A DNA stretch of 52,057 nt, the filler included, from Jimgerdemannia flammicorona (lineage: Eukaryota), in the NCBI GenBank assembly GCA_003990765.1. It is 2 parts of 2 records of this genome, joined end to end, with 100 filler letters (N's around TTAATTAATTAA, not from the genome) between each part and the next. Parts side by side here need not be neighbours in the genome. Positions count along the whole stretch, not along the records: positions 26,081 to 52,057 come from RBNJ01000771.1; 1 more part is not named here. One strand, given 5' to 3'. Shown one piece after another: positions 25,981 to 48,533 of this stretch. Both the position numbers and the translations under genes were made by a program. Under the pieces are notes generated by a model that made no database searches, was not told the origin of the DNA, and saw only the letters and a program-made list of their open reading frames with translations. Each line of letters opens with the position of its first letter. Positions within the stretch are counted from its first letter, which is position 1.

Positions 25981-26080
25981 NNNNNNNNNNNNNNNNNNNN
26001 NNNNNNNNNNNNNNNNNNNNNNNNTTAATTAATTAANNNNNNNNNNNNNNNNNNNNNNNNNNNNNNNNNNNNNNNNNNNN
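25981..26080. other. Artificial contig spacer: 44 N + TTAATTAATTAA + 44 N
   Basis: Exactly 100 bp and symmetric, with a six-frame stop linker at 26025-26036. Confidence 0.97.
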
Positions 26081-26808: not shown

Positions 26809-29800
26809 ATGCAATGGTAGGTTCGGACCGTGGAAGCATTCATACCACTTCGACACTAATAACTTACCGAAAGACAATAAAACAGCACTGAGGATGAAAC
26901 AGGTGTTGATTCGCCAGATCGTCTAGCTGATACCACCGCAGCCGAATCCTTGCTCAACGAGGAACAAAAGGTGGGCCGAAATTCCCCATTTATTTCCAGG
27001 CAAGTTCAGTCGCAATCAAGCCACTGCCTGACCCATCACCATGATCGACACGTTATCATTATTCTTCTCCGCAATAATGACAGATTTCCGATGCTCGAAC
27101 GGCGATATTGCTAGTCAAAAACTCACGATTCTTCTCGAGAAACGAATATTCCCAATGGTTGCTGAGATACATGTACCAACCTATAGCGGCCAAAGAATAC
27201 GAGGTTAACACCCGAATTTTCTGCCATCCACGCATAGTTTCCTATCTGACAATATACAACGGTAATCTTGTCATATTCGATTTAACTTACAATCCTCTCA
27301 ACGCGTCGTGTGCCATTTTTGCAGGATATCCAAGTTCTCCACATCTCAAACAGCCGCAAACTGCATTGGTCCTTCAACAATACCACACCTGCCAAAACGT
27401 TTCAATCACGTAATACGTCCCTCTCGATTTTCACCACCCCGCCATTGACTGCTACGACCAACGGTGATATTTCGCTTCCTGCATCCAATGTGGCTACCGC
27501 GGTTCAGACGCCAACCACACCGAAATACCCTGCGCATACCTTCAATCTATCGTCGAATGGGGGTATTACACCACCTTACGACGTAACCGCGCAAACTATC
27601 AACCAGCCGATTCCGAAAAAGCTATACAGGCTCAACCCACAAACCCGCATATTTACTATCGCCAAGAAATACCGCATGGTTTTCTTGGTTGATGTGAGTT
27701 CGAGCCTCGGGACAACTGACGCGGGCATGAGCTATGGTGGCGGCGACTCTCATTCAATGAGAGTGAAGGTGCTGATGAGCGATGTATTTGAAACGTAATT
27801 TTTCCAAGCTAATTATATGCGTGATACATACACGTTGTACAATGTTTTGAAAGCTATGATTCATATCCTCTTTATTCCGTAGGTTACAGAAATGCCTCGA
27901 CGGCATTGTGCGTCGATTCTGTATCCAAACCTCCACCACGAATGGGTCAACCGTACAGGTATGCAAGATTCGCTGGTGTGATATGGCAGGTTCCCATCGT
28001 GTCAAATCCGCCCTTACATGAAACCTTCCTCCCCTCTCGCTTCAATTCGGTTTTCGTAGCCTGACCCAACCCTTCACATCACAGTCGTCGCTGAATGCTC
28101 ACAGTTTGTCTCCAATCTCAATGTCATACCGCTGCTCGCTGAGTTTCCCACAATGCGGGTTCTCCTCGGGGACGTTGTCGTCTGCTCTTCTAACATTCGA
28201 CACGTAATCCAGCGCCTGCAATCCGAATTCACCATCTTTCAGAACCAGCTGGCTGACTTCCGCAAGGATCTAGAGAAAAAGAGGCCCAAGATGGGTTATA
28301 CCTTGGACGTGGGCCATCCAACAGCTGGCGTGGGTGTTACTGGCGACTTGCTGGAACCAACCAAGAGCCTGTCTTCTGGAAAAGCAACTTCTGCTCCGGG
28401 TATCTCGGGCAAGGTTAAGACTGCCAAATCGGCTGGCGGATCCAATGCTGGAAGGAGAAAGAGCGACACGAATAATCTTACGAAGTCTATATCCACTATT
28501 ACTTCTTCTACGGTGCCACCGCCTACTAAAACGGCCACCAATGTCCTATCAACAGGAGCGGCGGCAGCAGCAGCAGCAGCAGCAGCGAGTGGCAAGAAAG
28601 ACGTGTGGGGAGTTGGGAACACGGGTAGCAATCTTTCCTACCATCTGCACGCCGGGCTTCTGGCACTGAACTTATTGCCACAGGACGCGAGGCCTTCCCT
28701 GGTGTTCATCACAGACGGCGTCGTCAAGTCTAACCTACAAGATGAGGAAGTGGTCCGGTCCTTTGCCAAGGACGACATACCTTGTACCATTATTCAAGTT
28801 GGCTCAGGACAGGGTTTTTGCCCTGCAAGCAACTTCGGATTTGTTCCGGACAACGAGATATTACGATTCTTAGCTGCAGCCACGGGAGGCAAATTTATAT
28901 ATTCTTCCGATTGCAAAGCTATAACAGACTCTGCCTCAACGCTGGTCACTGTTCCATCGACGAAACAGGTTCAGCCAACGTTCTCGACCTTGCTCGACAC
29001 GTCGGCGGCACCGTCTCCCATTAATACCCCAACAGTTGATCTGTTTCCAACACTGACATTTGCCCTCACGTCAAGAACGCAACCCTCATCATTCAACCCG
29101 CCAAATTTTTACCACAAGCACTTCTTGATACGTGAGACATCCTTCTTCAAAATCAAATCAGACACACGGTACTCAAGCATGGGTAGTGCCAGCATCGGGT
29201 TGTCGGAACCGCATGTTGATGTTCCGAGAGAGTGGTACATACCCTTGGGTGCTGGCGATGGAATTGAGAATATACATCCTTCTCTTCACGATACCTCCTT
29301 CGCTTCGTCGCTGAATTTCCCCTGGGACCCGAAATCGCAATCGCCGGCGGTCGAGATCAACAGGGTTAGGTATCGTGAATATGCGATCGGTTCTGAAGTA
29401 TCCCAGGTGATTGCTGCCAGATTAAGGCAAGGGTTCACTATCCATTCTGTGGAGACTTCGGAGAACGGAACTGGAAGGGGGTATGGAAAACCTGCGAAAA
29501 TCACAATATCGATGGTACTACTATGGCTGCCAAATGTGACGATCGAATACAACATCAAGGCATTCTGGCTACCCATTGGGGCTACGGGGACAGGTGGCAG
29601 TGCATGTAACATATTCACGAGGACCAAAGCTCCACGGGCAGAAATCTATGTTTGGGCGCACACATACTTTGCACATGTATTCGCCGACGTCGGTCGCAAG
29701 ACTGGTGTGGATAACTCTCCCGTCTCTGCCAAGGTGCATAAGCTGTACCGCTTCCTCTCCAAAATTCACGAAACAGACGACTTGCTGAAAGGTTGGACAA

Positions 29801-32800
29801 ACTTCAATACCAGATGGCAGCAACTTTCTGGGAGAAGCAACAACCAGTCGCCCATCGCCTCTGTGGCGATACTGGCTAGTGGCCAACAGTCACAACAGCA
29901 ACAATCTCCAGCTTATCACATGCAGAAATATCTTGAAGCATTCAAAAATTACTGGGAAAGCACTGAACGCAATGATCATCGATCGTCAACAAAATGCTGG
30001 TATGATTTTGCTGAGATTGACGTTCTTGTCGGACATGTCTCGCCATACAAGGTTCCAAACAAAGCTTCGGATTATAATGAACAATATAACGGTAACGCGG
30101 AGGACGAAATTACGGAGGCTATTAGCATTGTCGAGGAGCGATTGACGAGCACTTGGGCGACATTTGTGTCAAAGGATAACGTTTTTGTACGTATTGTGCA
30201 GAAGAATGGGAATGCAAACGCTAGTGGAACCGCAACCCCAGTGGGTCCTGCAGGTGCGGATATTGCTTACAACGTGGAAAGATCATATTTGCACAGCCAA
30301 GTACCAAGCTTTTGCGAACTTCGCTTCAGCAGGGATACTGGGTGCCTTGTGACGCTGAGGATTTTGTTCTTCAACGTTGATTTGCTCACGCGGCGGAAGA
30401 CTGTGGACAATCTGGCCCTCAAACTATCACGAGTCGAATGGGATCGCGATGGTGTAAGTGGAGCTAGAGTCATGCCCAGCGGCAACATCAATAGGAAATG
30501 GCTGATTGTTTGCCAGCGCCCATTGTCACATATGTTGATGCGTGATGGCGAGCATTGCATCTCACCTGGAGAGCTTGATATGCCATCTGCATCATCGTCA
30601 ATTGCGGGTCAAGGGCAAAAGCACCAGCACCAACAACATCAATATCAGCAATCACCGTTGGCAGCTATGAGATCGAACCCTTGGTACATACCCTCTACGC
30701 TGTGGCTAACAAGCGAATTTGTTGTGAAGAACTATCTTAGACACTCGCCATGTTCTTGGTTAACTGATGGACAGGAGGATCGATTCTACGAGGATGCAAA
30801 GATACAAGACCTTGCGTTTCAATTCTTATGCCAAGCACGCTTGGATCAAGGATACCTCTTGGTGTCAACCCAACAGCACAAAAACCACTTTTATCAAGAA
30901 TTAAATTTGGGTGGATCAGTGCTTCCAACCGCAATTCAATACTTCGTCTGGAAAGACCCAGCTGGCAAGATTAATACTGAACTATGGATGGAACCAACGG
31001 GTGATCGCAATTTGAAAGATCAACTATCACGAACTTCTGATGTTGACCGGAAAATAATTTCCCAACTCGTGACGTTTGATGCGATTCATGCAATAGGACG
31101 AAACCATACCAAACAGGTGACCTCGTCAGGCGCAGCAGCAAATACTAGGGGAGATCCTATGATGAAATTACCAAAGTCGTTTGACTTAGTGTCTGTCCTA
31201 CGACTGGGTCGGTTCGCCATCGCAGCATATGCATTACCTGTTTACGGAATTGCCGAGCGAAATTTTGCCAATCGATTGTTCAAGTTTGCTGCAGTGGAAA
31301 TGATATCGGACAGGTCCCCATTGGGCTGGGGTGCTAGTGACAATCTCTCATCGCCGTTGAGTGAAGCCTCGACATCCGATACTGGGAGCCTAGCGTTAGG
31401 AGATTCGCAGCATGCTGGTGGTGCGAGCATCGGTGGGGTTGGCCACTCGCGGCAAACTACAACGGATACACTACAAAATCGCCAGAATCATCGCGGACAT
31501 TCGCTTCAGCTGCAGAAATCGAGTCCCATGGGGTCGCCAGCTATCGATACTAACTCTGCGTTCCCCACACCCGCTGCACCCGATTCTATGTACGCCCCGA
31601 AACCGGATGATTTACTGATCCAGCACCTAGCAAGTATCAGCAAACTCGAATACGCCAGACGCGATTGTGCGCTCATGCATTACTTTGTAGAGAAATCCCT
31701 TACGAAACTAATGGACGGAGAAATAGTTATGGCGCAACACGACACTCACGACAGCTTCTGGGACGAAATGAAGAAAGCCATGCTGGCAACGGACAATGAA
31801 CACAATATTTTGACCGCCCATCATCTCATCAGAAATTTACGAGATACCAGATGTTTTGTCAAGATTTTTGACCCACAGTCATTCATACTTATATTGGCAC
31901 CTTCGCTCGGGATTGTCGTCAATGCTTTGGAAAAAAATCCTTACGTTTTACCATTACCAGACCATTGGTCGAGCGAAGATGCCAAAATGAGAAAACCTGT
32001 GGAGTATATGGGATTCCTTATGTTTGAGTGTGTACGACAAAAGCCTCTTCGTCTCGTCAAGCGAAGCACAGTATCGAAGTTTCCAAGCTCTGACAGCATT
32101 ATTGAATTAGAGTCGTTCGACCGCGATAAAGTGACAATCACACCCGTGCCTTTTTTGGTGGAAGAATCCGACGGACTTGAAACCACTTTGAGGCCTACGT
32201 TGTTTGATGGACATTATCAGACGACCCAGCTCCAGGCGTCACCACGGACCTTACGATTGACGCAGGATGTGTCCAAGCTCTATGCCCGAAGTTTCGTCAA
32301 GTCAGTGTATTCTTGTCTGCTACAGAACCATGTTGTAGACGCCGATGATTTTGAAAAGGCGATGGAAAGCTGCGCAGAATCAAGTATGGAAATCGTCATT
32401 ACGAGATATGTTAATGTACAGACCTTGCTGAAACAGAATGGAGCACATCGGTAATGTATTTCACATTCAACGATATCGTATTGTTTGTTGGGTTCCCCCT
32501 TAAAGTCCGGAAACTCATATTTGCTGATGTGATTGGTTTCTATTAGAGACGATTTCGGTGATATTCAAGATCGGTTCGTTTCTGTTTTGGGGCACTACTT
32601 TGAGCCTGTCAATTCCTCGAAGGATGGGCATCGGAGCATCTTCTACTATCGACCCAAAAATACTCGTGTCAACTCTAAACCTGGGACGACTGAGATGGCG
32701 AACGTGCTACACGACATTATTGGGTGTGCTCAGGAACCTCTCTTTATCCGCTTAGAATGCACTTTTAAGAAGCCTCCAACATCCCCTACGAAGGACGTCC

Positions 32801-34727
32801 ATGAGGCGGAAGAGGTCACCTTCCCAGTATTAGCCTTTCCTATCTCATATCAAATCACTTTAGATGACGGTAGCAAATATGATTTCGATCCGACATATAT
32901 TGGGACTGGCGCTTGCCCCGTCGATTCGGCGGATGGTACGATCGCAACATTACATTTGGTTTGCCTTACATTGCCGTCGACAGAAGATGATGTGTCGGAC
33001 ACTCCGGTCGATGTTGTTACTGCCCAATCGTACGTATCTTTGTGTGAATAACGGTCTCTCTTTTTTTTTTTTTTTTTTTTTTTTTCTTCAAGAAAAAAGA
33101 AACGATAATGTTTTGATCGTGGTCTCGTTCTTCCGTATTTGTTTACAGTTCACTCATTGACAACATGCGATCGCGCCCGGCTTGCTTGGCATCGTTGCCA
33201 CCTGACAAGCAGGAAGCCTTAGCCGCCACAGAAGCTAGACTTGACTGGCTCTTGACCGAAGAGATTATGCACGGCTTGCTGCGTTCTGGCCCTGTCACGC
33301 AGCCAGTATTGGATTATATCGAAGCTCAATTGAAAAAGAACGTCGCCGACTTCCCAACATCAAAAGCCATGCCTTTGAATTTTGTTCGGAAGAAGAAACC
33401 AGAAGAGAGAGCAATCACCAAAGCAATCTTTTTGGAAGAGCTAGCCAAAGTCGACATATTACCATACTCTCTAAATAGAGTAGGGGATTGTTTCTACGTG
33501 AGTGAGGATGTCAGAGAATGTGATGACTCATCCAGCACTACAACTCTGTTCGCATCTGAAATCACGACAAATGACAATGACATGGCTGACGATCAAAATG
33601 ACGACGAAGAGACATCTGTTACAGGTGATGGGGATAATTTATACGGTCTGGGCATCACCATGACGGAGCAGACCGTCGGACGAATCGTTCAGAAACAACT
33701 GTTCTGGTTATTGTTGATTCCACAGGATGGAAGTGTGCAAATATATTTCTATTCTAAAGCTATGCACGAAGTTGGCCTATCTGCCATCATTAAACGTATT
33801 CAAAGTATGATATTGCAAGTCGAAAAGCGTGCGAATCAGTTGATACTTTTGAAAGAGTTGAACGAATCACATCTATGCAGGTAAGCGGCTGTCATTTCCC
33901 TTTGTGTTTTAATTCTTCATTCATGATTCATCGTCTCAAAATACTGTGTTGCCATCCACTTTGCAGTAAATATCTTGTCGTTCCTGAATCCACAAGTCAG
34001 ACTGGAGATGCTTCCGAGGAGTTTCCCGATGGCGAGGATGGCAGTCCAAAAGACAATTTCGTCGATGCAGAATTCGAACCTGGGCAGCTGGCTTGTCCAC
34101 GAGTGTTCTCGAGTAGGTTTCCTCTTCACTGGCGATTGAAAGCGAATCATGCCCTTAACTCGATCGCGGCGGCACTTCATCCAATGGCCGTTACGAACCG
34201 AAGTCATATGTTCGTTTACCCGAAAGATGGCTCCGTGGTGTATATAAAACTATCGGAAGTTGATATTGTCCCTCCCACGATGGACTCGGAGGGGGGCGAT
34301 AATGATGTTCGTCTTACCAGTTCTCCTTACGGATCGAATCTGTCGCTGGTAACTGGCACAAACAGCGTACCTTCTACGCCGTTTCCACTTCAAGGCTACA
34401 CAGCAGAGGACGTCCGACCCTCTCCGTTTGTAAATGGGAACAGTCCTCGATATTCTTCGACGACTTCACCAGGATCACGGAAACCGATGCAAGCGAAACC
34501 TGTCGAAACAAGAGAACTAGTTCTCGATGTGTTTGGCGTTGATCCACCTGGACGAGAAATAACAGAGGGATTGGTTGAGATGGTGGAAAAAGGATTAATA
34601 AATAACACTTTGCGAATCATCGCTGATTCTTTGGCTCGAAATCCCACTTTCAAACTGACGTCAGCCGTGAGTACTTTGTGCGAACATCATAAATGGCCAT
34701 TTATATATATTATGAAAACTAATCTGA

Positions 34728-34758
<31 letters not shown>

Positions 34759-37700
34759 GATATTCTCAGGATGTCGATTTTATCCTTCCAGTCGAAAAGA
34801 ATCCGGCGAAACGGCAACCATTCTGCATTCCATTTCTCGTCCGAAACCCGCATACATTCTTGCTCTACATGCGACAGAACGTTCTCTCAAGCCAATTGCA
34901 CGCTCTCTCTGGCTCAGATGTGGTCGCAGCAGTGAAGCGTCACTACGCTTCTATCTACGGGTTCGGTACGGGCTTTCGTAGCGACTCGCATTATCACGAT
35001 GAAAGGTAAAGTGTCCTGGGAGAACTCAACTACGTTGGTCCATTACCGCGATGCGGATCATCTACTAATTAATACTCGACCGTCTTTGCAGGAGCGGAAA
35101 GAGCCAAGAACTTCTGCCTGGGGAGTTCTGCTTCTACTATAACATGATGGTGACCAAAAATCCATCCCACATGACTCTTTTAGAGAATTCTGCAGGGCAG
35201 GGTTTGGCCGGAATCTGTTTGACATTGCTCGATCCCTCTGGAAGGCCAGCGCTCCAAGTTCCGGCACAAGATCAGGAACGCGTTGATGGTGTTGATAGAG
35301 CGGCGGTAGAAGCATGTCTCGATCAACCATTCTACGGCTCCGGGGCTAACGAAGAGTTCTCGGTCGTTGCAGAGATCTGGGTGATGGGCTCTGTCAACGC
35401 TGGTGCGATCCTAGAGCATCTTGAGAAATGCTTCCGTCAAAGTCTTTGCGATTATCTTGTGGAAATGATAATATCGACAGATGTAAGTTATATAACAGGT
35501 GAAGAATCAGAGCTTAATCGCGCCGTACCAACATCGATTATGGCCGACACTATGGAGGACGACTTGCCACAGTTGTTAGATCCGAAGATACGAACAACAC
35601 TTGTAGAGCCGTGTTTTTCCATTTTGAAGAAAGCTGCCGAATGGCAGAGCCCGACAGCGCAAGAGTTAAACCTTTCGGCGAGTTTAGCACCGTGGTGTAT
35701 GGACGATTTTCTATGCGAGCTCTGCGACGCCCTCACGGACATGCACTCAAGTTTTGCACCAATCATTATCAAGACTCAAACTTCGGCCACAGACTCTGCC
35801 GAAAGCAAACTTGAAATCTATCAACCTACGCGCAGCCGCCAAGATGATGAACCTCACGAACCGAATGTTCGTTTTGTGGTGATTAGCGGTATCAAAGAAC
35901 TATCAGACAAATATGGTATTTCATCTGGCAGTCCATCGGTTGTTACACGTCGAAGAAGCATTGACAGCGACAAATCCCACAAGTCGCATAGGTCGAGTAG
36001 GTCGCGCTCGCGCCGCAGCTCCTTCGAAGAAAATGACAAGGCCAGCATTGCTCACTCTCGCAAAGAAGATCATGCCAGCGACAAAGGCAGCATCAACATA
36101 CCGCGCAAGGACGAACTTGCCAGCAGCCATCGAAAAGATTCGTGGACTTCCATACCCTATCAGCAACGAACTCAACTTGATGGCATGACACGTTATCCAG
36201 GTGTCTCTCGCGAAGGTCTCGCACGACATTGTTTCTTGTTGATGTCGTTGAATGGATCAAATCTAGTTACTTACACGTACAACTGGGGCGACGTGATTCA
36301 TGAACAAATGTTCAGTTTCATCAATCGAACTACAAGTTGGCACGCATCACGGATGAACGTTTTGAACAGTATACTTCACCAGAAGATGGGATTATTCCAT
36401 CACACAGATCCTATATATAAGCCAATCCAGCCACCCGCAGCTCAACACGCCCACTCGCACAATGCTACTCATCACCCTCAGCAAAACGCGCATCATATCG
36501 CCATGCAAACACCGCGTCTCGGTTTTCTATCACCTAACCCAAGTAGCCTTTCCGTCTCTCGACTGGCTCACGTAGATGGTACCGGGTTGCGCTCGAACAC
36601 CGTGCAGATAAGCACTCCTACGAATATTCCCCGTCCTACGGCTTCTCCTCAGCCAATTGATGGCACAAACCTGAACAGTCTTATATACGAATCCTTTCCA
36701 CCACGGTTGCGAGCTGGCAACGACTATCCTCGACCCGAAGAAGGTAAACGCATGCCCACAGGTGATTCACGTATGAATGATGCCTCGAGCTGCTCCAGTC
36801 TAGATGTACCGGAGAGGCTCGCCAAATCACCCATACCAACTGGCAATCTCGCGCGCGATTCCACCAGAAGTGTCGAAGTAAACAAACTTTTGCGGGATTC
36901 GATCGCGGAATCCGTGACGGAATCGCTGAATGCGAAGGCACAAGATGCATTACTGCGACACGGGCCGCCATTCATGGAAACTCACTCCCGGCAAGCAAGG
37001 ATTCAACAAGCGCACGACAACGCAATAAAGATATATACTAAGTGGGCGAAGCGATACAAGGATTCCAAGATCCCTGAACAAGAGTCGGAGAGTATAGCTA
37101 CATCGGATCTTGCGGTAATCTTGCGTTCTTCCCGGCTATTGCACTTCTGTCGGACACCTCTGTTGTTCACGGATTCAGGAAACATGGGATTGGAAGGCGT
37201 TTATGAACGGCAATTATCAACAAAAACGCTCGAGTGGTATTCGTTGCTGACGCAAATGTTCATGAGAGAGTACGCAACTTATCTTGAGACAGTCGGCATG
37301 CAGACAGTTGTCTTTGGCGCCACCGACTCCCATCTAGTCGAAGACATGGAGAATACCCCATTCTTTTCAAAATTCAAGATTTCGGACGAACTATTCGTTG
37401 ACTGTCCTGCGGTTTTCTTGCTTAAGGTCATGCAGATTGGCTCAATCATGTGCGAAGTACGCATCCAAGGCATTTTCGTATGCGTCACGCTATATATACT
37501 GCATAGACGTCATGGTCGATTGCGTGCTGCTCTGCCTACATTCGAAAAAGAGGAATGGATTCGTCAGAATTTTAAAATGTTTACGGAGGAGTGCGGGAAA
37601 TTCAAACAACGCATACATGTCAACTCGTTTGTCTACGACTTCCACTTAAGATACATCCAACACACTTTGGATAACCACGAGTCTGCGTCCTTGTCGTTGA

Positions 37701-38867
37701 ACCTCCTCCAAGTTATCTGTGCGTTCGCACAATCTCACCCGTCGCCTGCAAGTTATTCCCGAAACCGCATCTTCCAAGGAACATTTCATGTAGAATCCGA
37801 TACCATACCCGAGGGTCTCTTTGACTATATTTTAAGCAATCCAGAAAAATATAGGTTCGAAACTTTGAACTTTGACCTCAATCCCGTGGCGTGCTTCCTC
37901 TCTTCTGATTTTGTAGACTTCAGTGTCAGTGTGAAAGACGATCAATCTCGACGAAAGCAGACGGGTTCGTCCTTTAGACATACACTTCTTGTGTATCCAG
38001 CGGATGATTCGTCGAGCGACAGTTCGCGGCTGCCGAATGATAGCAGACGTGTTGCATTGCAATATTTCGTGATTGTCACTTACCAATGCAGTTCACAAGG
38101 AGCGGACTCGGTGCAGGCAACGAAGGTCCTCAAGAATATTCCAGGCAAGACAGCTTTTAAACCGCTAGAGGAGGTGATGACGCCAGAAAACTACACGCTC
38201 GGGAACATTATTGACAATGCAGAAAAGAGACTGCAAAAAATGATAGAGGAGGTACGTTTAGCAGGGATATTTTTATTTTTATGCAATTGTCCCTTTTTCT
38301 TTTCTTTCCACTTCCTATTACTTCGGTTTTCCAAAATAATTATTAGTAATAAAAACAATAAAGTAAACTGATATTCGTTTTCAATTGTCAACCGTCTTTA
38401 TATTCGGACTGGACAATCAGGCTGTTGCGTTCCATAGCCGCGACGCTCAATGGGGCAGGCTCTATCGCGATCAGCTACATAATAGCACCCTGAGAATCGA
38501 GGATTTCACTCGCCTTCCGCAACGCTTCGAAATCCTTGACCTTACGACCGTGGATCCGCAGTTCCGCGATTACTTACAGCTACCGCTGAACTGGCACAAA
38601 ATACTAGACAGCATGCGGGACTTTTATAAATATTATGCACGAGAGTCGCGCCAAGGCGACGCACGACACCTTGTCATCTTCAATACGCAATGCGAGGATT
38701 TTTTGGTGCATTTCCAGCTACGTGAATCCATCAAAGTAAATGTTTCTGTCGTGAGCCGGGAGAAGAGGAGCATGGCTGGAAAGATGGAAGGGTTGGAAAA
38801 AGATCACGTGTCGGATATCGCGAAGACATTTGGTTATCATTTGTGGAGGCAAGTGGTTCCGAGGTAG
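26809..38867 (+). CDS. SZT2: SZT2 / KICSTOR scaffold homologue, 12 exons, about 3635 aa
   Basis: Exons 26809-26816, 26886-26970, 27084-27203, 27325-27794, 27883-27958, 28060-32450, 32547-33029, 33149-33880, 33967-34666, 34770-35005, 35092-38251, 38421-38867 (GT-AG, total 10908 nt, divisible by 3). N-terminal LLVKNSRFFSRNEYSQWLL, TRIFTIAKKYRMVFLVDVSSS and DVFETLQKCLDGIVRRF match the SZT2 N-terminus, as do VFITDGV, FGFVPDNEILRFLAAATGG, ARLRQGF, SRLLHFCRTPLLF and IHVNSFVYDFHLR. Confidence 0.92.
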
Positions 38868-39022: not shown

Positions 39023-40018
39023 TCAAGAAATAATACCCTCAGCTATACTCTTACTCTGTACAACCCCCTTATCCGTGCGGAAGGGTATTCCTTTGTAAAG
39101 CGCCACACCCTTCGGAGATGTTGAGAAATGCGTTGCCACTCTTTCCAAAACCTTCTGTTTTGGTTTGAGCTGCTCATCTGGTATCCCTATCAGTTTACCG
39201 GAACATGCAGACGGTGTTTATAATGTTATAGACAAAACCAATTTTTTTATGGAATGGAAATAACTCTCGGAAATAACTCTTGATGAAGGACAGCACGCAC
39301 CGTTTCCTAGGCTTTCAAACCACACACGCTCACCAGCCACACTCCCTTCAGGAGGTTCAAGGATCTCAACATGACGGGGCCCCTTGCCTTCTTGGTTGCT
39401 CGCACACAAGAGCATTCCATACGACTCAATTCCGCGAAGCTTGATTGGCTTCATGTTTTTCACAACAATGACATATTTGTCCTTGACGAAGAATGACATG
39501 TTAATTTCTTTTGTGTCTTGGTATCAAACATGGCAAATCAGTAATAATAATGTCGTGCAGTTTATATAGAAACGGCGAAAGAAGCCCACCTGGAGGTCGT
39601 CAATAGTGATATACTTTACAAGGCCGCTCACAATTGTGCGCAAACCGTTCACTGTGTCACCGACGTCGACTTTTGAAAAAAAAAATATAAATAAAATAAA
39701 AAATGAAAATGAAAAAACACCGAATCCTCCCCCCCCCTGAGAATGGTTAAGGAAATTATCGGCTGGCATAAGATTGAAGGTAGTTCACAAACTGATTCAC
39801 AAACCTTGCTCCACATACAGCGAGTCAGCATCTGGGTGGCGTTCTATTTTCAGAATACGACCAACGCGTATGTCTATCCTATGTATCAATTCCACAGATT
39901 TGGCCTCGACGGGGGTATGTTCCAAACGGTGATGGTTTGCTAGCTGGAGCGTTGAGCGTGTAAGATTTATACGAGCGGCCGGCGCATAATTTAGAAGGCG
40001 ACTATATTGAGAGATCAT
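39023..40018 (-). CDS. Stand-alone tRNA-binding OB-fold protein (Arc1p C-terminal / EMAP II / Trbp-like), 4 exons, 212 aa
   Basis: Exons 40018-39805, 39669-39590, 39481-39301, 39186-39023. [39 protein letters not shown]...NMKPIKLRGIESYGMLLCAS...VEILEPPEGSVAGERV...LKPKQKV. Confidence 0.92.
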
Positions 40019-40286
40019 GCTGTGCTGGTAGTTTTGATTTGCGCGCGGGCTACCATTTTTATTTTGGCGTCAGGACTATTCAGGCTATGGGATTGTGGGA
40101 TTGTATTGTGTGTTGTCGAAAGGCTGGTCACATGTTCCCCTCTGTCACAGAACGAGGTGACCTCATTATATTTATATATAGCTAATCCACCATTGGTAAA
40201 CAACCGTTGCTCCCCTTGCCACTCATTACCTTCAACCCCTCTCCCCCTCCACCTCACACACCTCCCATTCTTTCCCATTCCCTCCC

Positions 40287-42373
40287 ATGAATCAACATTC
40301 CTACGACATTTACGCTCAGGTACCACCACCTCCTCGACACCACCTTCCAAGTGTTTGCTGTTTAACCTAAACACCTTTTGTTTACAACCTTCAGGACAAT
40401 GGCAATCATTACCATTCACAAGGCGGTTTGGAACCATACCTTGCTCAGCTAGGCATTTCACCCGCTGGTTTGTCGTCTTCCTTGCTCCTGCTAGTGTATT
40501 TACCCTCAGCGTTCCACATCAGAAACTTACGCAAACTACGAACCTGCAGATAAACCCTCCTTTATCGAGGAGATCAACTCCATTGACGACGTGGAATTCT
40601 TGAGACGATTGGTTATTGAGAAAGAGCGAGAAAAACAGAGCATAGCAAATGATCTGGACATTGCTGCGCGGCTTGGCCTGGCGATCTCCGAGACGAACGA
40701 GGAAATGCAAGTCAAGGTGCTAATTCGACTCGTATATTTTCGTTTGATATCAGATCCAAATTTACCGAACTCTCCCATTGGAAAAATTTATTCAGTCCTC
40801 TGGATCTACTTGTCTAGATCTCGGTCATGGAACACGAGAATCAATACCTTCACTCGGAGTTGATGCGGTCCACGGAACTCACAAACCAGCTTATGTCCCG
40901 TGATGACCAATCCAGGTCATTGACAGAGCAGAAGATGTACATGAACAAAGAGCTTGACATGGCTAGGCGGGAGCTGAGGCGGTTTCGCAAGGAATTGGAT
41001 GGTTTATCGGGGCAATTGAACGATATGGCAAATGACATGGTACGAGTTCAATACGGTCCTTTTTGTCCTTGCCGTTTTGTTTTTTATTCCCGTGCCTTGA
41101 TTAGGCGGCTTTCGATGAAAACATTACAAATACATATGCACGCGCGTGTACATAAATGATAATGCATAAAAAGCAAAAGCATTCAAAATGAAATGAAGCT
41201 TGGCCCACGGCAAAATTCTGTTCGGCTTGCCTGTATCATTAAGATACTTCCGTCTCAAACCATTTTATTTTTATTTTTTTTTATTCCATCCGGGATAGGT
41301 TGATTCACGTGGGAGGGCCGGTTCATACGCCAAGAAATTGGGTAAATGTTCATATCTTCGTACTAAATTTCATTGCCGCGACGTGCAGTTTGCCAACGTT
41401 GTCGCATGTATATGAACAGCTCATCCAATTGTTACTCTTGGAATATTATTTTCATTCTTTCTTTAGCGGAAGTAGAGCACAACTTGACGACCACGCAAGA
41501 AATGAATGTGAACCTTCAGAATCTTTTGGAAAAGGCTTTGAATACACAAAAGCAGTCAAATGCGAACACAACACACGTGGTGAGAAATATTCAATCCGAC
41601 CTCACGAGGGTAAGAATAACTACATGTCTTTGTTCACAAAATATTTCTGCTGCAAAGGGGCTCCTCTAATTTCGGCGAATTATCGTAGGTTGTCCAAGAA
41701 AATGACCGCCTACGCTCTCGAATTGCTGAGCTCGAGGAACACCAATCGGATTGCGAGAATAAGCTGGCCGAGATGATTGACAAAGCCAAGGAGTATGCGT
41801 CATTGCTTGAGCAAGCCCAAGACACTATACATACATTAAGCGAGCCTCGGTTGGACGATATGAGTGTGTCCCATATTCCAGAGAAGGCCGGAAAGGAGAC
41901 CGAAATCACAAAGGTATTGATTGTCATGCTTTGTGCTCTATTGCCATTCGTTATTTGTATCTCATCTCACCAAGAGACTGGCAAATTTATGAATCGTGTT
42001 CTATTTATATTGGTTCCAGGGATCCTTGTTATCAACTGAAATCACTCAGGAGATCGAAAAGGAGATTGAAAAAAAGTTGGTGATCAAGATGGACATTAAG
42101 AATCGGATTGTGAAGCATGATTCGATTGTCAACGACCGGCGGAAAGCTCAGGAGGGGCTGAAATACCTGTTACCGGATCGTGATGTATCGACATCATATG
42201 CATACGGACGTCGCGGTTCCTTCGGCAGCGATACCTCGAATATTTCTGCAGCCTCTGCCGTTACCCTTCCTGCTGTGTCATTCATCAATCGCGTATCACC
42301 CACCAAGTCGCCTAGCACACCAACTCGAATTTTCCAGATATTGACTGGTAGACGGGATGGTACTCTCGTATAG
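40287..42373 (+). CDS. Long coiled-coil protein with a CC1-box (AAxxG) motif; candidate dynein-dynactin adaptor; start uncertain (40287 or 40399)
   Basis: Core exons about 40550-40716, 40818-41039, 41299-41341, 41467-41609, 41689-41913, 42020-42373 splice in frame. KEREKQSIANDLDIAARLGLAISETNEEM is followed by about 200 aa of heptad-like sequence and then KGSLLSTEI. Confidence 0.8.
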
Positions 42374-43048: not shown

Positions 43049-46000
43049 TCAATCCTTGTCTTCTTCCATGTAATCTGGATTTTTTCTCAGCAACACGAAA
43101 CCCTCCAACACGTGTGACAACGCAATATCTGCCAACAAGACAAATATTTGAATAAGTTAGATTAAGCAGTCCAGTCACCCATATAACGAGCGGAATATAA
43201 GACCTACATTCTTCTGTTGCCAATTCAGCTCGTTCGGAATGCGCCAATAGGACAGGCGTTGAATGCGTTTGAAAGCCTGTGATCGTTTTGGGCCGACCAG
43301 CTTGACCGACAACATCAACGGCCTATTTCATCAATTATGAATGTAGGAAAAGTTGACATCGTTTGCATAAATGGCAAAATCAAACATTTCCCTTGAGTAC
43401 GCCTCAAAGAGAGCAAGTATTTCCCTACGTGCTCTTTTTACGCCACCAGACATACCTGACCCACACGGACCGTCACGGGTAAACTCTTCAGATCCTCATC
43501 AAGCGTAATTAGGAATCGCGGGTACATAGCCGTCACCAGCGTGTAGAGCAGGTAATGAGACTTGCCCAGTATAACTATGTGCACATAGGAGGGTGCGTGC
43601 GCAAATTGAGTACTTGGTGGCTCGGCGGTCTTCCGTCCAGTGAAGCACAAGCAATCAAAAAACACGGAAAATAATAAACGGCCGAAGGTACTCACAGCTC
43701 TTGGCATCCGTGAAGGCTATGGTGCTCGCCAATAAACCTGCAACTGCAACTGGCGACAGCAACTGACGGTCGGTGTGGAATGGGTTGATAGTCATAGTTC
43801 CCTTGCCCATATGGAGCAGGCCTTGCGCAATACGGACCATGAACAGACTATTGGGCTCCTTATTGTAGTAGGAAGCGAGCTGACGCAACATCTGTGCTAA
43901 ACGTGCGTTGTTTGTACCTGCGCCAACGAGACCCATGGCGAAAATGGCGTTCACGGCGACTTCCGGGTCGTTATCGTGGGAATACTTGCTTAAGGTGTCC
44001 AAGACAGAAAGTACAGGGTTTGAGGCACACAGTAGACCGAGTGCAAGGGGCACAGCACGTCGAATCACTGGTTCGCCGTAGTGCATCTGTGAGGAGTAAG
44101 CATGTAACAGAAGCGATTTGATTGACAATTACTACGTACCGACATATATGTTTCCAGGAAGGAAGTATAAAATAACTTTTGGCTTACAAGATGATTGTAG
44201 GTCCTCAACGACATCTCCGCGCCAATATCCTCACCCATAGCAATCAACGCGACACCGAGGACTGCAAACGCCTGATGCAGATCATCCTCTTTGTCTTTGT
44301 CCAGGTGATCGTTGCAGATGTGCAGCATTTTTTGCACCTTAAGAACATTACCGGTGCCAGCATACGAAAGAATTTCCACTAAAGTCTCTGTCTGCTTGCC
44401 CAAGGGATGTTCAATTGCCTTGAGAGTCTCAAGTGTCGCCTCTGATGCGTCCTGTTTGCCTGGAGGTATCAAGCATAGATGCCAGGTTGCGAAATTTGTA
44501 AAATAATGAGAATATTGTCAAGTGTAAGAGGTAAACTAGCAATGCCACATTCATAAAACACGCTGCTCACCAAGATATAACAACGCGAGACCAAGGCCCA
44601 TGAATCTAGACCACGTGTCCTTGAGGTGTACCTCCTCGCGTTCCATCATGGTTTGCAGGATGGTAGAAGTGATATCGCCGTCGCAAGAACCGACGAAAAC
44701 CATACCGAGGGCGAGAGCCGCAAGAGACGAAATCTCCATCGACAAGCCTGCGTCACTCACAACTGGTAACAGAAGCTCCGAAATTTCTTGGCGCGCTGAA
44801 CCAGCGTATGCGAGACCGAGGCTAAATGTGACGGGATTATGAAATTGCATGCGTTTGTACAAGCAAAGAGCAAAAGCTCCAGTTTTGGTCAAGCATAATC
44901 AAAACCGAGAAAGTGCAATTACTAACCCAAGGATAGACGCAGTTCTAATGGAGACGTTTTTGTCGTCGATGTATTCTTGCAGCACAGCAAGCGCCGGATC
45001 GGATTCGTTGCGGACGCCAGAGTTAGTTATTCCTATGGCAAGCAAACCACCAGCCTACGAAGGACAAAGCAACAAGTGTGGAGCTATAATCATCAAAGCC
45101 AAACCGAGATAACCGAGATGACCGCGGTGTATATAGTCTGTGGATGGTGGACTCCGATACGTTGACAACCACATACCTTAATGTAATTTTCGGTCAAATA
45201 CAGATACTTATCGAGTTGAGTCAACCCTGCTTCGACGTCCCACAGTAGAATCACACCGTGCGATGCTGTGGCGCTCATCATGCCGTGCTCTTTGTTCTTA
45301 TATATCCACGAATCACTATCTTCTTTCGGAGTCATAAGCTTGTCGGAGCCGAAACCGGCGTTGACAAATGCATTGACAAATGTCGAGGCTAGATTCTGTC
45401 GTGCCGAATCGCCGGCCGCGGATGCAAAGCCAGGACCTGTAAGAATCGGACATGGGAAATTTAGAACAGCAATCACAGTTAGATTGTCCTAAAGAAACTA
45501 TGGAGCCAAAATAGCAAAGGGTAACATACGAATATTTTCGAGGTGGCTTTTGTAAATGTCCTCAGGAGTTTTGGGTTCAAGAACGTCAAGCTCACGTGCC
45601 AAGGAGATGAAGTGCTCCGATAACTGTAAATTATTGAGGCAGCTTAGCACATCGGGATCATCCGACTCCACCTGAATGGATTGCCGAGCTAAGATAAACG
45701 CAAGCTGTTTTTTCATTGTCCTGCATGGCGAGTATAAACCGAGAGTGCAGGAAATTGATGAAATCAGTTGCAGTGTTATCGGACATTGTCATCTGTCATA
45801 ACATGGTTTTGGTGTGCACACGGAGCCGATGTTCCCGAGACATACGGTGAACTCTACTGTGCTGAAGATTAAGGTGTAGAGGTTAGATATATCAAACTCG
45901 AATTGTACCTGTCTTCACAAGCATCGAAGTCTTCCTTAATTAGATCACGATCGCCTAGCCGAATAGCTAGGGTGAGCGCCTCGGGAAACTTGATCTGCTG

Positions 46001-47482
46001 GCGATAAATGGTGTGCGCAGTTCGCAGAAATGCGGCATCATCTGGAGGCACAAGAAGGTTCACGCAGCTAATCACAGCAGGCGGGTGGAGTTTAACATGT
46101 AAAATGATTGTTACATAAGGCTAGTGCATACACAGGTATCAATAATTTTTTATACATCAACGCATACCTAACCATGTAGAGACATACGCGTGCGTACGTA
46201 TCCTTATCCACAAATTGTGGCAGCTGGTCGATAGCTTCGAGTTCCAAAAGCAGATCGACAGCGTCCGCCTCGGCATTGTGCTTGAGAAAGAAGGGGACGA
46301 TCTCAAGGGCCAGTCGCATTAAATCGCCGGTTGATTCGTCCTCTTCTGCACGTTTGTTGTATTCAAGACCAATTTCGGACGACAGGTGTCTAAGGAACAC
46401 ATCCCAAAGGATGAGTACCGATCAAATTTCAAGAGCACATGCACGCACACCGAAATCGCGATTGTACCTGACATATTCATGACCCCACGATCCTGCCTCT
46501 TCAGCAGAGCCCACCAGCCTATACTTCAAGGAATCCCGTTTGCCCTCTTCCGAGTATGTCATGCCTAATACAGATAGGATATCTGCAAGGAAATGCTAAA
46601 ACAAATGTGAACCTGTCAATACGATACGTGTTACATGCATCATACAGGTGCATCATTGACAAAACAGTGCACACAGAAATTCCTGTGCATACTGCTGTAT
46701 TCATTTAAGTCAAAGTGTATTCCCAGACCATTGAAGGTTCGACTCTGCTTCCGCCTGGCCCCATCTGCCATAACTCTGCAAAGAATCACGCTCTGGCGTA
46801 ATCGAAGCTAACCTTATCCTCTGTCTCCATCCAGGATTCATATACTTCAATTAGACCACTATAATGGGGCCTCAAGAATTTCAGGGGTTTGGGAACAGAG
46901 GTCATAGAGCTTGTTGAGGTACGGATCAGGGTACGCAGGCTCTCCAGTGCAGGTCGATGGAGATCTGTGTTTGACTCCTACAGTACAAACGCGTGTATAT
47001 GAGTCGGGTGCTTCAGAACAACTATGCGCATTTCTTGGAACCAGACGACAGGGACCCAGCCAGGCTCTTAAATCAGTTCGATACATACTTTCAGACGATC
47101 CACGAGCATCTCGAGCTCACTCTTCAATTGTTGGTCTTCTTCAGACTGGCATATATAGGGATCGAATAGAGTAAAAGATGTATTTGAATCCTATCATGAA
47201 TTCATGTCGACACGCGAGTGCAAAGAAGACAACGCATTTCCTTCAAACCAACCCCATGAATTCAATCTACTTGACATTACAAAGATGACAACAGGGAATC
47301 TTCCAATGGCTCAAATGTTAGACACTGAAAGCAAGTCTTACCAGTTCCTCCGACTCGTCTTTCTTGTCCTTATCGCCATTCTGCTTTATGACCTTGGTGT
47401 CAGCCTGGTTGGGGTCCTTTTTCTTCTGATCAGAATCGTTTGGCGGGACGTTGGCGGCGGAATCTTCCGTTTCTTTGACCAT
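43049..47482 (-). CDS. RPN1: 26S proteasome regulatory subunit Rpn1 (PSMD2), multi-exon
   Basis: MVKETED..., [150 protein letters not shown]...KD*. Confidence 0.97.
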
Positions 47483-47581
47483 GATGGTATTGATTGCGAG
47501 TAGGATAAGGTGGTTGTGGGGGAGGGGAGGGTTAAGGTGTTCCACCAGAGGTCGCTTACGTACGTGTCGAGCAAGTAGTGA

Positions 47582-47640
47582 TGACGTAACACGTTTTGAC
47601 CTGAGGCATATTAGCAGTCCAACCACGACCCCGCCACCAA
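47582..47640. promoter_or_regulatory. CRE-like TGACGTAAC plus PACE-like CGCCACCAA in the 171-bp bidirectional RPN1/ATG12 intergenic region
   Basis: TGACGTAAC at 47582-47590 and CGCCACCAA at 47632-47640; the same pair occurs upstream of the E2 gene. Confidence 0.55.
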
Positions 47641-47653
47641 GTCGTTGTTCGCC

Positions 47654-48533
47654 ATGAACTCCCCGCAATTACCCCCGCTTCAAAGCCCCAGTGTTTCTAC
47701 TGCCACCACTTCCAGTTTCTCCCTCACACCCGCCGAAACTCAGCTTCCGTTTTCGTCTACCACCGCTCCGGCTCTTCCGGCCTCGTCCACCCCGAAATCT
47801 CCCGACGAGGTTGTTGCCGCTCTGAAAAAGAAGGATATCAGTAAAGGTGTGAAATGTAACCTTCTCCGAGTGTTCAATAATCTGATTATTGTTATTATAT
47901 TTCAAGAACATGTTTTGGGGGAATGGTTGGTGTTCCTCAGGCCACATTTCTTCGGAGCTGCTCCTCATTTCCGTTTGACTTGGATTTAAAACATCTAGTG
48001 GTGGTTCGCTTCCGCGCCATCGGTAATGCCCCCATCATGAAGCAGAATTTCTACAAGATCACCGCATCCAACAAGTTTCAAGCAGTCATTCAATTCTTAC
48101 GGAAAGAGCTCAATTATAAAGGATCTGACCCTTTAGTAAGTATTCCCTTTATAGTTTCAGGGATTCCGTCAGTCTTTCATGCTACTTTCCTGAGGCCACA
48201 CAGAATTCAGACCAACCACGGAGAACAAATAGAAGCTGTTGCGTTGTCCCTCTTATCATGATAATACTCCCCGTATCCATTACACACACACACCTCCCAC
48301 GCGATTAGTTCCTGTACATTAATAGTGCCTTTTCCCCAGCACCTGACGAAATAGTTTCCAACCTGCACAAGGTGAGGAGTTGTGTGCTTTTGAGAAATAT
48401 TCCCTCTTGGCAACCTTCTTTAATATGCCGTTTCGATATCCTTGCCGCCACACTTGCAATATTCATACAATAGTGTTTCAACACGGACGGCCACCTTATA
48501 ATAAACTATTGCACAAGCGCTGCCTACGGGTAA
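47654..48533 (+). CDS. ATG12: Ubiquitin-like autophagy protein Atg12, 4 exons
   Basis: Ser/Pro-rich N-terminus, then K^[41 protein letters not shown]^[21 protein letters not shown]^[19 protein letters not shown], ending in the conjugating Gly. Confidence 0.95.

Follow-up and report, generated by a model that had tools for sequence, protein, structure and literature searches.

A conserved CC1-box coiled-coil family of Mucoromycota and Zoopagomycota, putative dynein adaptors, at a Jimgerdemannia flammicorona locus

Does the gene at positions 40287 to 42373 of the Jimgerdemannia flammicorona window (the whole stretch of DNA analysed, 52,057 nucleotides, filler included) encode a dynein adaptor of the CC1-box type, and to which adaptor lineage would it belong? 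Among fungal coiled-coil proteins, those characterised as dynein activators are Hook proteins (HookA/Hok1) and Num1 (PMC7649786), in agreement with a preliminary description of this DNA, which had proposed an uncharacterised CC1-box adaptor kept in early-diverging fungi. Our answer is based directly on the gene, its motifs, their conservation, the predicted helix layout, and the LIC and p25 genes of the same genome.

Gene model and predicted layout

The 419-aa reading frame is open across eight exons with GT-AG at all seven introns, six of which are joints in spliced contigs of runs X1 and X2 (presumed RNA). For the seventh (41040-41298) there is no listed joint; X2 record 6 has 43 letters there, which is the length of exon 5, and one low-depth contig also reads through this intron. 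Runs X3 and X4 cover small pieces only and are left out of the evidence. One locus for the protein was found in the genome. The peptide of exon 3 recurs unchanged in P0001 and P0002, two public hypothetical proteins under the name Jimgerdemannia flammicorona, which reach 435 and 466 aa via other splice sites; the added residues are excluded by the RNA contigs. Structural statements refer to the AlphaFold2 monomer model of the near-identical P0001. The features of the gene are as follows.

40287..42373, +: eight-exon gene, 419 aa; spliced contigs, GT-AG introns
40287-40319, 40395-40467, 40550-40716, 40818-41039, +: exons 1-4
41299-41341, 41467-41609, 41689-41913, 42020-42373, +: exons 5-8
40431..40578, +: two short conserved N-terminal helices (residues ~24-29 and ~34-45), from the model (pLDDT ~60-75) and the consensus; spans intron 2
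40591..40892, +: CC1a (residues ~50-116), in Mucoromycota with one heptad more before the CC1 box than in Zoopagomycota or the HAP1_N profile
40654..40686, +: CC1 box LDIAARLGLAI, with AAxxG at 40663-40677; predicted site for LIC helix 1
40842..40853, +: QYLH (residues 100-103), a QxxH-like word not kept family-wide
40893..40919, +: coiled-coil break with an Asp pair (residues ~117-125), of highly variable length in Mucorales
40920..41841, +: CC1b (residues ~126-278), over four exons; most conserved region
41911..42043, +: Spindly-like motif KG-SLLSTEI, with LSTEI at 42029-42043, at the CC2 start; predicted p25 site-4 contact
42029..42127, +: short CC2 (residues ~306-338), from the model
42155..42172, +: amphipathic helix GLKYLL (residues 348-353), with G in 45, L in 45 and L in 45 of 47 rows

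In the model, helices 61-132 (which includes AAxxG) and 142-294 have pLDDT above 90 for most of their length, and a loop leads to a helix that begins at the L of LSTEI. In full, two short helices precede CC1a and the break; CC1b follows with 153 residues, then a disordered linker, the CC2 helix of 33 residues, the GLKYLL helix and a tail that is disordered as well. The sequence of CC1 box, break, CC1b, linker and motif at the CC2 start is the layout given for all adaptors (10.64898/2026.04.25.720804), and the two long model helices supply a CC1 of at least about 200 residues, as in adaptors, where it may be continuous or broken. Residues 74-280 are net acidic (36 D/E vs 27 K/R). The preliminary description had read, after manual splicing, AAxxG and KGSLLSTEI about 230 residues apart with about 200 aa of coiled coil between them, and the spliced model bears this out: AARLG occupies residues 74-78 and KG-SLLSTEI residues 302-310 (LSTEI 306-310, with the K-G junction spanning the last intron), 235 residues separate the first A of AAxxG from E309, and the coiled coil corresponds to the two long helices. 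It had also described a Pro/Ser break before the second motif; the linker is present, but its Pro/Ser enrichment is only mild. The GLKYLL helix is a candidate cargo or partner site, and the two N-terminal helices are possibly, by analogy, the counterpart of the autoinhibitory helices of TRAK1.

Family range and conservation of the two motifs

A search with P0001 recovered 56 proteins, from Mucorales, Endogonales, Umbelopsis, Calcarisporiella, Glomeromycotina and Podila; 45 of these were combined with 2 more in a 47-row alignment, the rest being 6 near-duplicates and 5 incomplete or shortened models. A profile search gave 163 representatives (150 of them listed), and the named members that it added were more Mortierellomycotina, the Zoopagomycota Syncephalis, Basidiobolus and Dispira, and, in Mucorales, a paralogue of lesser length; the 30 members identified by name include no protein from chytrids, Dikarya or animals. 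A word-based search with a 22-sequence profile, which has no bearing on range, had two Syncephalis proteins among the matches listed. In a quick tree built from 65 rows of the CC1b core, the branching agrees with the subphyla. As judged from sequence, this is a real, conserved and uncharacterised family of Mucoromycota and Zoopagomycota; no description of it was found in the open-access literature on dynein adaptors in Mucoromycota and early-diverging fungi. Three public Mucorales models of 1206-1309 aa (P0005, P0063 and P0218) contain the family protein in extended form, the extension in P0005 being a 3'-5' exonuclease domain; these fusions are probably joined neighbouring genes.

The preliminary description had staked its reading beforehand on conservation of both motifs in orthologues, and both are conserved. 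AAxxG and its flanking leucines are kept in 46 of the 47 aligned members, the sole miss being a gap in the model, and AAxxG is present in 4/4 named full-length Zoopagomycota members, which do not have the extra heptad; five Mortierellomycotina rows have AGRFG in the CC1 box (AG for AA). At the downstream motif, 46 of the 47 rows keep E, 43 keep S, 43 keep K and 39 keep G, after a variable linker. In 20,000 protein shuffles, AAxxG arose by chance in 6.2%, the extended word LxxAAxxGLx[IVL] in 0.015%, JxxE-phi in 88%, and AAxxG with JxxE-phi at 200-300 spacing in 1.05%. The sequence alone thus supports the CC1 box and not the second motif, given the gulf between 0.015% for the extended word and 88% for JxxE-phi, which has 4 matches in the 419-aa protein. 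Since JxxE-phi is so common by chance, LSTEI is uninformative in a single sequence, and its support lies in conservation and position.

The adaptor Spindly-motif consensus is JxxE-phi, located either in the loop that follows CC1 or where CC2 starts (10.64898/2026.04.25.720804). The preliminary description had called the match imperfect; LSTEI does fit this consensus, but its L is itself atypical of the family, with F at the J position in 41/47 rows and L in 3/47. The phi position is F in 26/47 members, and in Mucorales and Glomeromycotina most motifs read FSxE(F/V); these two F preferences place the family motif outside the published consensus. In Mortierellomycotina, by contrast with shuffles, [ST]LxxE[LI] is found in 15/15 rows, with 35 matches vs 0.47 in shuffles (maximum 4); a single protein has up to 7 copies, and in 15/15 it is the first copy that aligns with LSTEI. 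Such a motif is present in 1/4 Zoopagomycota members, which is chance level. These patterns were picked after the sequences had been seen, and the shuffles ignore the kinship of the rows.

The QYLH word lies 26-29 residues past the first A of AAxxG, i.e., one heptad earlier than in Spindly (34-37). H/Y occupies the QxxH place in 8/8 Glomeromycotina, 4/15 Mucorales, 0/11 Mortierellomycotina and 0/4 Zoopagomycota rows. In adaptors that have it, QxxH/Y (HBS1) stands about 30 residues past the CC1 box, with an acidic patch. It is not universal among adaptors, and A. nidulans dynein has different HBS sites (10.64898/2026.04.25.720804).

Both motifs are missing (0/18) from the 18 short paralogues, which form one clade inside Mucoromycotina (SH-aLRT 100), a count made without the long-branch P0200, with two of the 18 rows possibly truncated models, and with the joint loss standing as a single event. 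These CC1-less paralogues retain CC1b, and the GLxxL word is kept in 14/18.

The putative partners are encoded in the same genome. The LIC gene includes the helix-1 word and is split over two overlapping contigs; its helix 1 (L004 643-735, minus strand) has LF where human LIC1 has FF, as a natural variant or a sequence error, and the FF pair of the human helix is essential (PMC6336354). The p25 protein has T18, S31, Q32 and I35, the four positions compared of the five that PMC8047447 names for site 4 (the fifth is 56). When the complex of the LIC helix-1 peptide of this genome (31 aa) and a pair of CC1-box exon peptides (55 aa) was predicted without an alignment, the scores were 0.15 and 0.25 vs a mark of 0.34; as the method is uncalibrated for peptides, these values weigh neither way.

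Relation to Spindly, TRAK/HAP1, BICD and Hook proteins

A degenerate Spindly-box pattern has one place in the Jimgerdemannia genome and none in the control. That place lies in a Spindly-type gene on another contig of this genome, and a Rod_C gene is present on C4182.

G000:C3305 (L017 2484-5225): Spindly-type gene, with CC1 box AAEIG, canonical Spindly box LFSEVEDKR and C-terminal CHQQ

In this gene, for which the intron is predicted only, LFSEVEDKR lies 251 residues past AAEIG and the CHQQ end represents a CAAX. Profiles of the window family score about -30 bits on it (hhalign 4%), and in the absence of profile similarity the genome holds two different CC1-box proteins. Spindly orthology of the 40287..42373 protein was rejected on the basis of this separate gene, the lack of a CAAX and the 33-residue CC2: the 419-aa protein ends without Cys, and Cys is at -4 in 0/47 C-termini. 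The protein likewise does not have the long RZZ-binding coiled coils that follow the Spindly box. The likeness to Spindly lies in the CC1 box, in the Spindly-box-like word with the same K-G-x5-E register, and in the spacing (235 vs 237 in human Spindly, counted by eye in the PMC5579357 supplement).

Spindly has been placed near the base of Obazoa in origin (Wu 2023, PMC10630089), and orthologues are listed in Coemansia, Allomyces, Catenaria, Batrachochytrium and Spizellomyces (van Hooff 2017, PMC5579357), with a CC1-box lead-in similar to that of the window family. Mucor, Phycomyces and Mortierella are in the same published set and none is among the Spindly entries in the part of the orthologue file that was covered (17 of 25 places), so the RZS module, given the Spindly-type gene of Jimgerdemannia, may be wider in Mucoromycota; among the matches listed in the orthologue file of that study, none is by motif a member of the window family (PMC5579357). 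The proposal of an uncharacterised CC1-box adaptor kept in early-diverging fungi therefore needs qualification: the family and its motifs are conserved as proposed, but Spindly orthologues from such fungi were already listed (PMC5579357) and adaptor activity is an extrapolation. What is new is probably a second, non-Spindly CC1-box family in fungi, the only fungal CC1-box proteins found in print being Spindly orthologues named from sequence.

By Pfam and ESM, the nearest named family is TRAK/HAP1. HAP1_N (PF04849) is the sole Pfam match of the CC1-box exon (E 0.027) and the top Pfam match in 4/5 basal members (E 1.7e-5 to 1.1e-4), and its profile matches are collinear over positions ~62-304 of 307. 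The Pfam cut-off of 33.9 bits is never reached, the best scores being 24.6 (basal members) and 12.8-15.1 (P0001/P0002); over the 47 members, HAP1_N is matched in 8, third after two generic coiled-coil families (10 and 9). Milton (PF12448) has no match in P0001/P0002, in the basal members, or among the best 25 of 44 families for the 47 members. Assignment to an unrelated coiled-coil family, which the preliminary description had named as refuting its reading, did not occur in these HMM searches; the nearest named match is the sub-threshold HAP1_N. Two orthologues are labelled 'HAP1 N-terminal domain-containing' in UniRef, without comment. The HAP1_N profile found no match in the Spindly-type gene, but this control is confounded by an intron in the CC1-box lead-in and says little about how specific the HAP1_N match is. 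On the whole genome, exon by exon, HAP1_N gave two weak and unrelated-looking places and missed the 40287..42373 gene, which indicates that exon-wise family searches are insensitive; Zwilch and HOOK_N had no match in the genome by the same insensitive search, which is no proof of absence.

In the ESM Atlas, P0001 retrieved its own cluster first and then CDR2-like, TRAK1 and BICDR clusters at 0.86-0.88; 5/5 named neighbours shown are CC1-box adaptors, and 1/10 of the best named matches shares the family of the first. The Basidiobolus member retrieved two unnamed Basidiomycota clusters at 0.89 and TRAK1 at 0.88, with 9/10 named matches in agreement. As the named families score below 0.9, these neighbours are leads only. 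The two unnamed clusters (~760 aa, with Basidiomycota records) are possible Dikarya relatives.

The resemblance to TRAK1 extends to the order of elements, i.e., short helices, the CC1 box in a CC1a that is likewise short, a break, CC1b and the motif; in TRAK1 the helices shield the CC1 box (10.64898/2026.04.25.720804). The family differs from TRAK/HAP1/Milton in its length of ~420 aa, its Pfam scores below cut-off without a Milton match, the heptad that Mucoromycota have inserted ahead of the CC1 box, and a QxxH word that is not conserved. Neither a Miro- nor a kinesin-binding site was identified in the family, although Miro motifs are hard to judge by sequence, being too plastic for exclusion on that basis (PMC10897228). 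The layout is TRAK/HAP1-like, yet the protein lacks defining features of TRAK/HAP1 (HAP1_N above the cut-off, Milton) and of Spindly (CAAX, long coiled coils after the box).

BICD2 is the best natural PDB match of the 47-row profile (CC1 box of 6PSE, gap-free, E 0.17, not significant), a match to BICDR1 (E 2.2) is not significant either, and LSTEI resembles the BICD2 motif LLSEL (10.64898/2026.04.25.720804); CDR2L and BICDR clusters are the ESM neighbours of P0001 that connect it with CDR2/CDR2L and BICDR. Unlike BICD2, BICDR and CDR2, the family has no BicD Pfam match, its CC1 is broken instead of continuous, and there is no long cargo-binding CC3 coiled coil. A PDB sequence search with the 22-sequence profile gave 56 rows with generic coiled coils topmost and no adaptor, and Foldseek against the PDB gave nothing at E <= 0.001, with four weak coiled-coil rows.

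Hook and Num1 families were absent from all family scans of this CC1-box family. Hook proteins differ in that they bind LIC by the Hook domain; HookA requires p25 for its function. If Hook were truly absent from this genome, the importance of the 40287..42373 adaptor would be raised.

Proposed function, rival readings and surroundings

We consider the protein to be probably a homodimeric CC1-box activating adaptor of cytoplasmic dynein-dynactin, which would belong to a separate family that spans Mucoromycota and Zoopagomycota and has a TRAK/HAP1-like layout. We infer every binding step from animal adaptors. The AAxxG groove of CC1a would bind LIC helix 1; the acidic CC1, ~230 residues long, would run along the dynactin filament beneath the dynein tails; past the flexible linker, (L/F)xxE-phi would dock on site 4 of p25; and the short CC2, the GLKYLL helix and the tail would bind an organelle or vesicle receptor, with the N-terminal helices perhaps shielding the CC1 box until cargo is bound. 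As for the cargo, we consider an interphase membrane organelle most likely, and not the kinetochore. More tentatively, and with the odds against it, the family may be the fungal orthologue of the TRAK/HAP1/Milton lineage, i.e., a bidirectional kinesin-1/dynein adaptor of an organelle (possibly the mitochondrion) from the opisthokont ancestor, kept in Mucoromycota, Zoopagomycota and possibly Basidiomycota; the tandem motifs of Mortierellomycotina (up to 7) would then serve multivalent pointed-end binding, and the motif-less Mucorales paralogue might be a decoy or heterodimeric regulator.

That the protein is an unrelated structural coiled coil (a tether, spindle-pole protein or scaffold), in which the AAxxG kink and the start of an amphipathic helix arose by convergence, seems unlikely to us. 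All family and structure matches are below threshold, JxxE-phi arises in most shuffles, and most of CC1b is as strongly conserved as the motifs, as such a protein would have it; but the extended CC1-box word is very rare by chance, both motifs stand at adaptor spacing, canonical repeats occur in every Mortierellomycotina row, both motifs were lost together in the paralogue clade, and two ESM queries both name CC1-box adaptors as nearest families. It is distinctly unlikely that the protein binds LIC as a non-activating scaffold or regulator, or is mainly a kinesin-1 protein, with a pointed-end motif that has drifted. The F-variant motif of most members, the lack of a conserved QxxH/Y, the motif not evident in 3/4 Zoopagomycota and the AG for AA in five Mortierellomycotina rows are in keeping with drift; the E held in all rows but one at adaptor spacing argues otherwise, and the QxxH variation carries less weight given that the word is not universal and HBS sites differ in A. 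nidulans (10.64898/2026.04.25.720804).

Highly improbable is a divergent orthologue or paralogue of Spindly that works with RZZ at the kinetochore, to which the matching spacing and K-G-x5-E register, the Rod gene, the origin of Spindly near the base of Obazoa (PMC10630089) and the similar lead-in of fungal Spindlys would all be suited. The separate Spindly-type gene (AAEIG, LFSEVEDKR, CHQQ), to which the family has no profile similarity, together with the missing CAAX and short CC2, refutes orthology in this genome.

If the protein is the dynein-dynactin adaptor that we favour, it suggests, from sequence comparison, that early-branching land fungi possess a kind of adaptor which has until now been studied in animals alone. 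A CC1-box family of this second, non-kinetochore sort would, if true, mean that Spindly-type and TRAK/HAP1/BICD-type adaptors parted earlier, closer to the animal-fungal ancestor, and would provide a candidate dynein link to organelles or nuclei in coenocytic hyphae, those of arbuscular mycorrhizal fungi included. The variation found in nature, with F in place of L, tandem motifs and a paralogue devoid of motifs, is a direct test of the consensus for the Spindly motif and also of the way in which non-animal dynein recognises adaptors; Mucor and Mortierella are transformable.

The genes that neighbour the locus are housekeeping genes and give no hint to the function of the 40287..42373 protein.

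27286-38867, +: very long gene, presumably SZT2-like; two large ORFs without Pfam match
39218-40069, -: tRNA-binding-domain gene, divergently transcribed
43655-47668, -: PC-repeat proteasome subunit gene, which we take to be Rpn1-like
47881-48261, +: Atg12

An N spacer at 25982-26080 of the window joins two contigs, and the AT-rich left contig, which is unrelated to the gene-rich right one, contains ORF pieces with ankyrin-repeat, BTB and Crinkler N-terminal domains (446-1066, 3474-4055 and 7892-8338).
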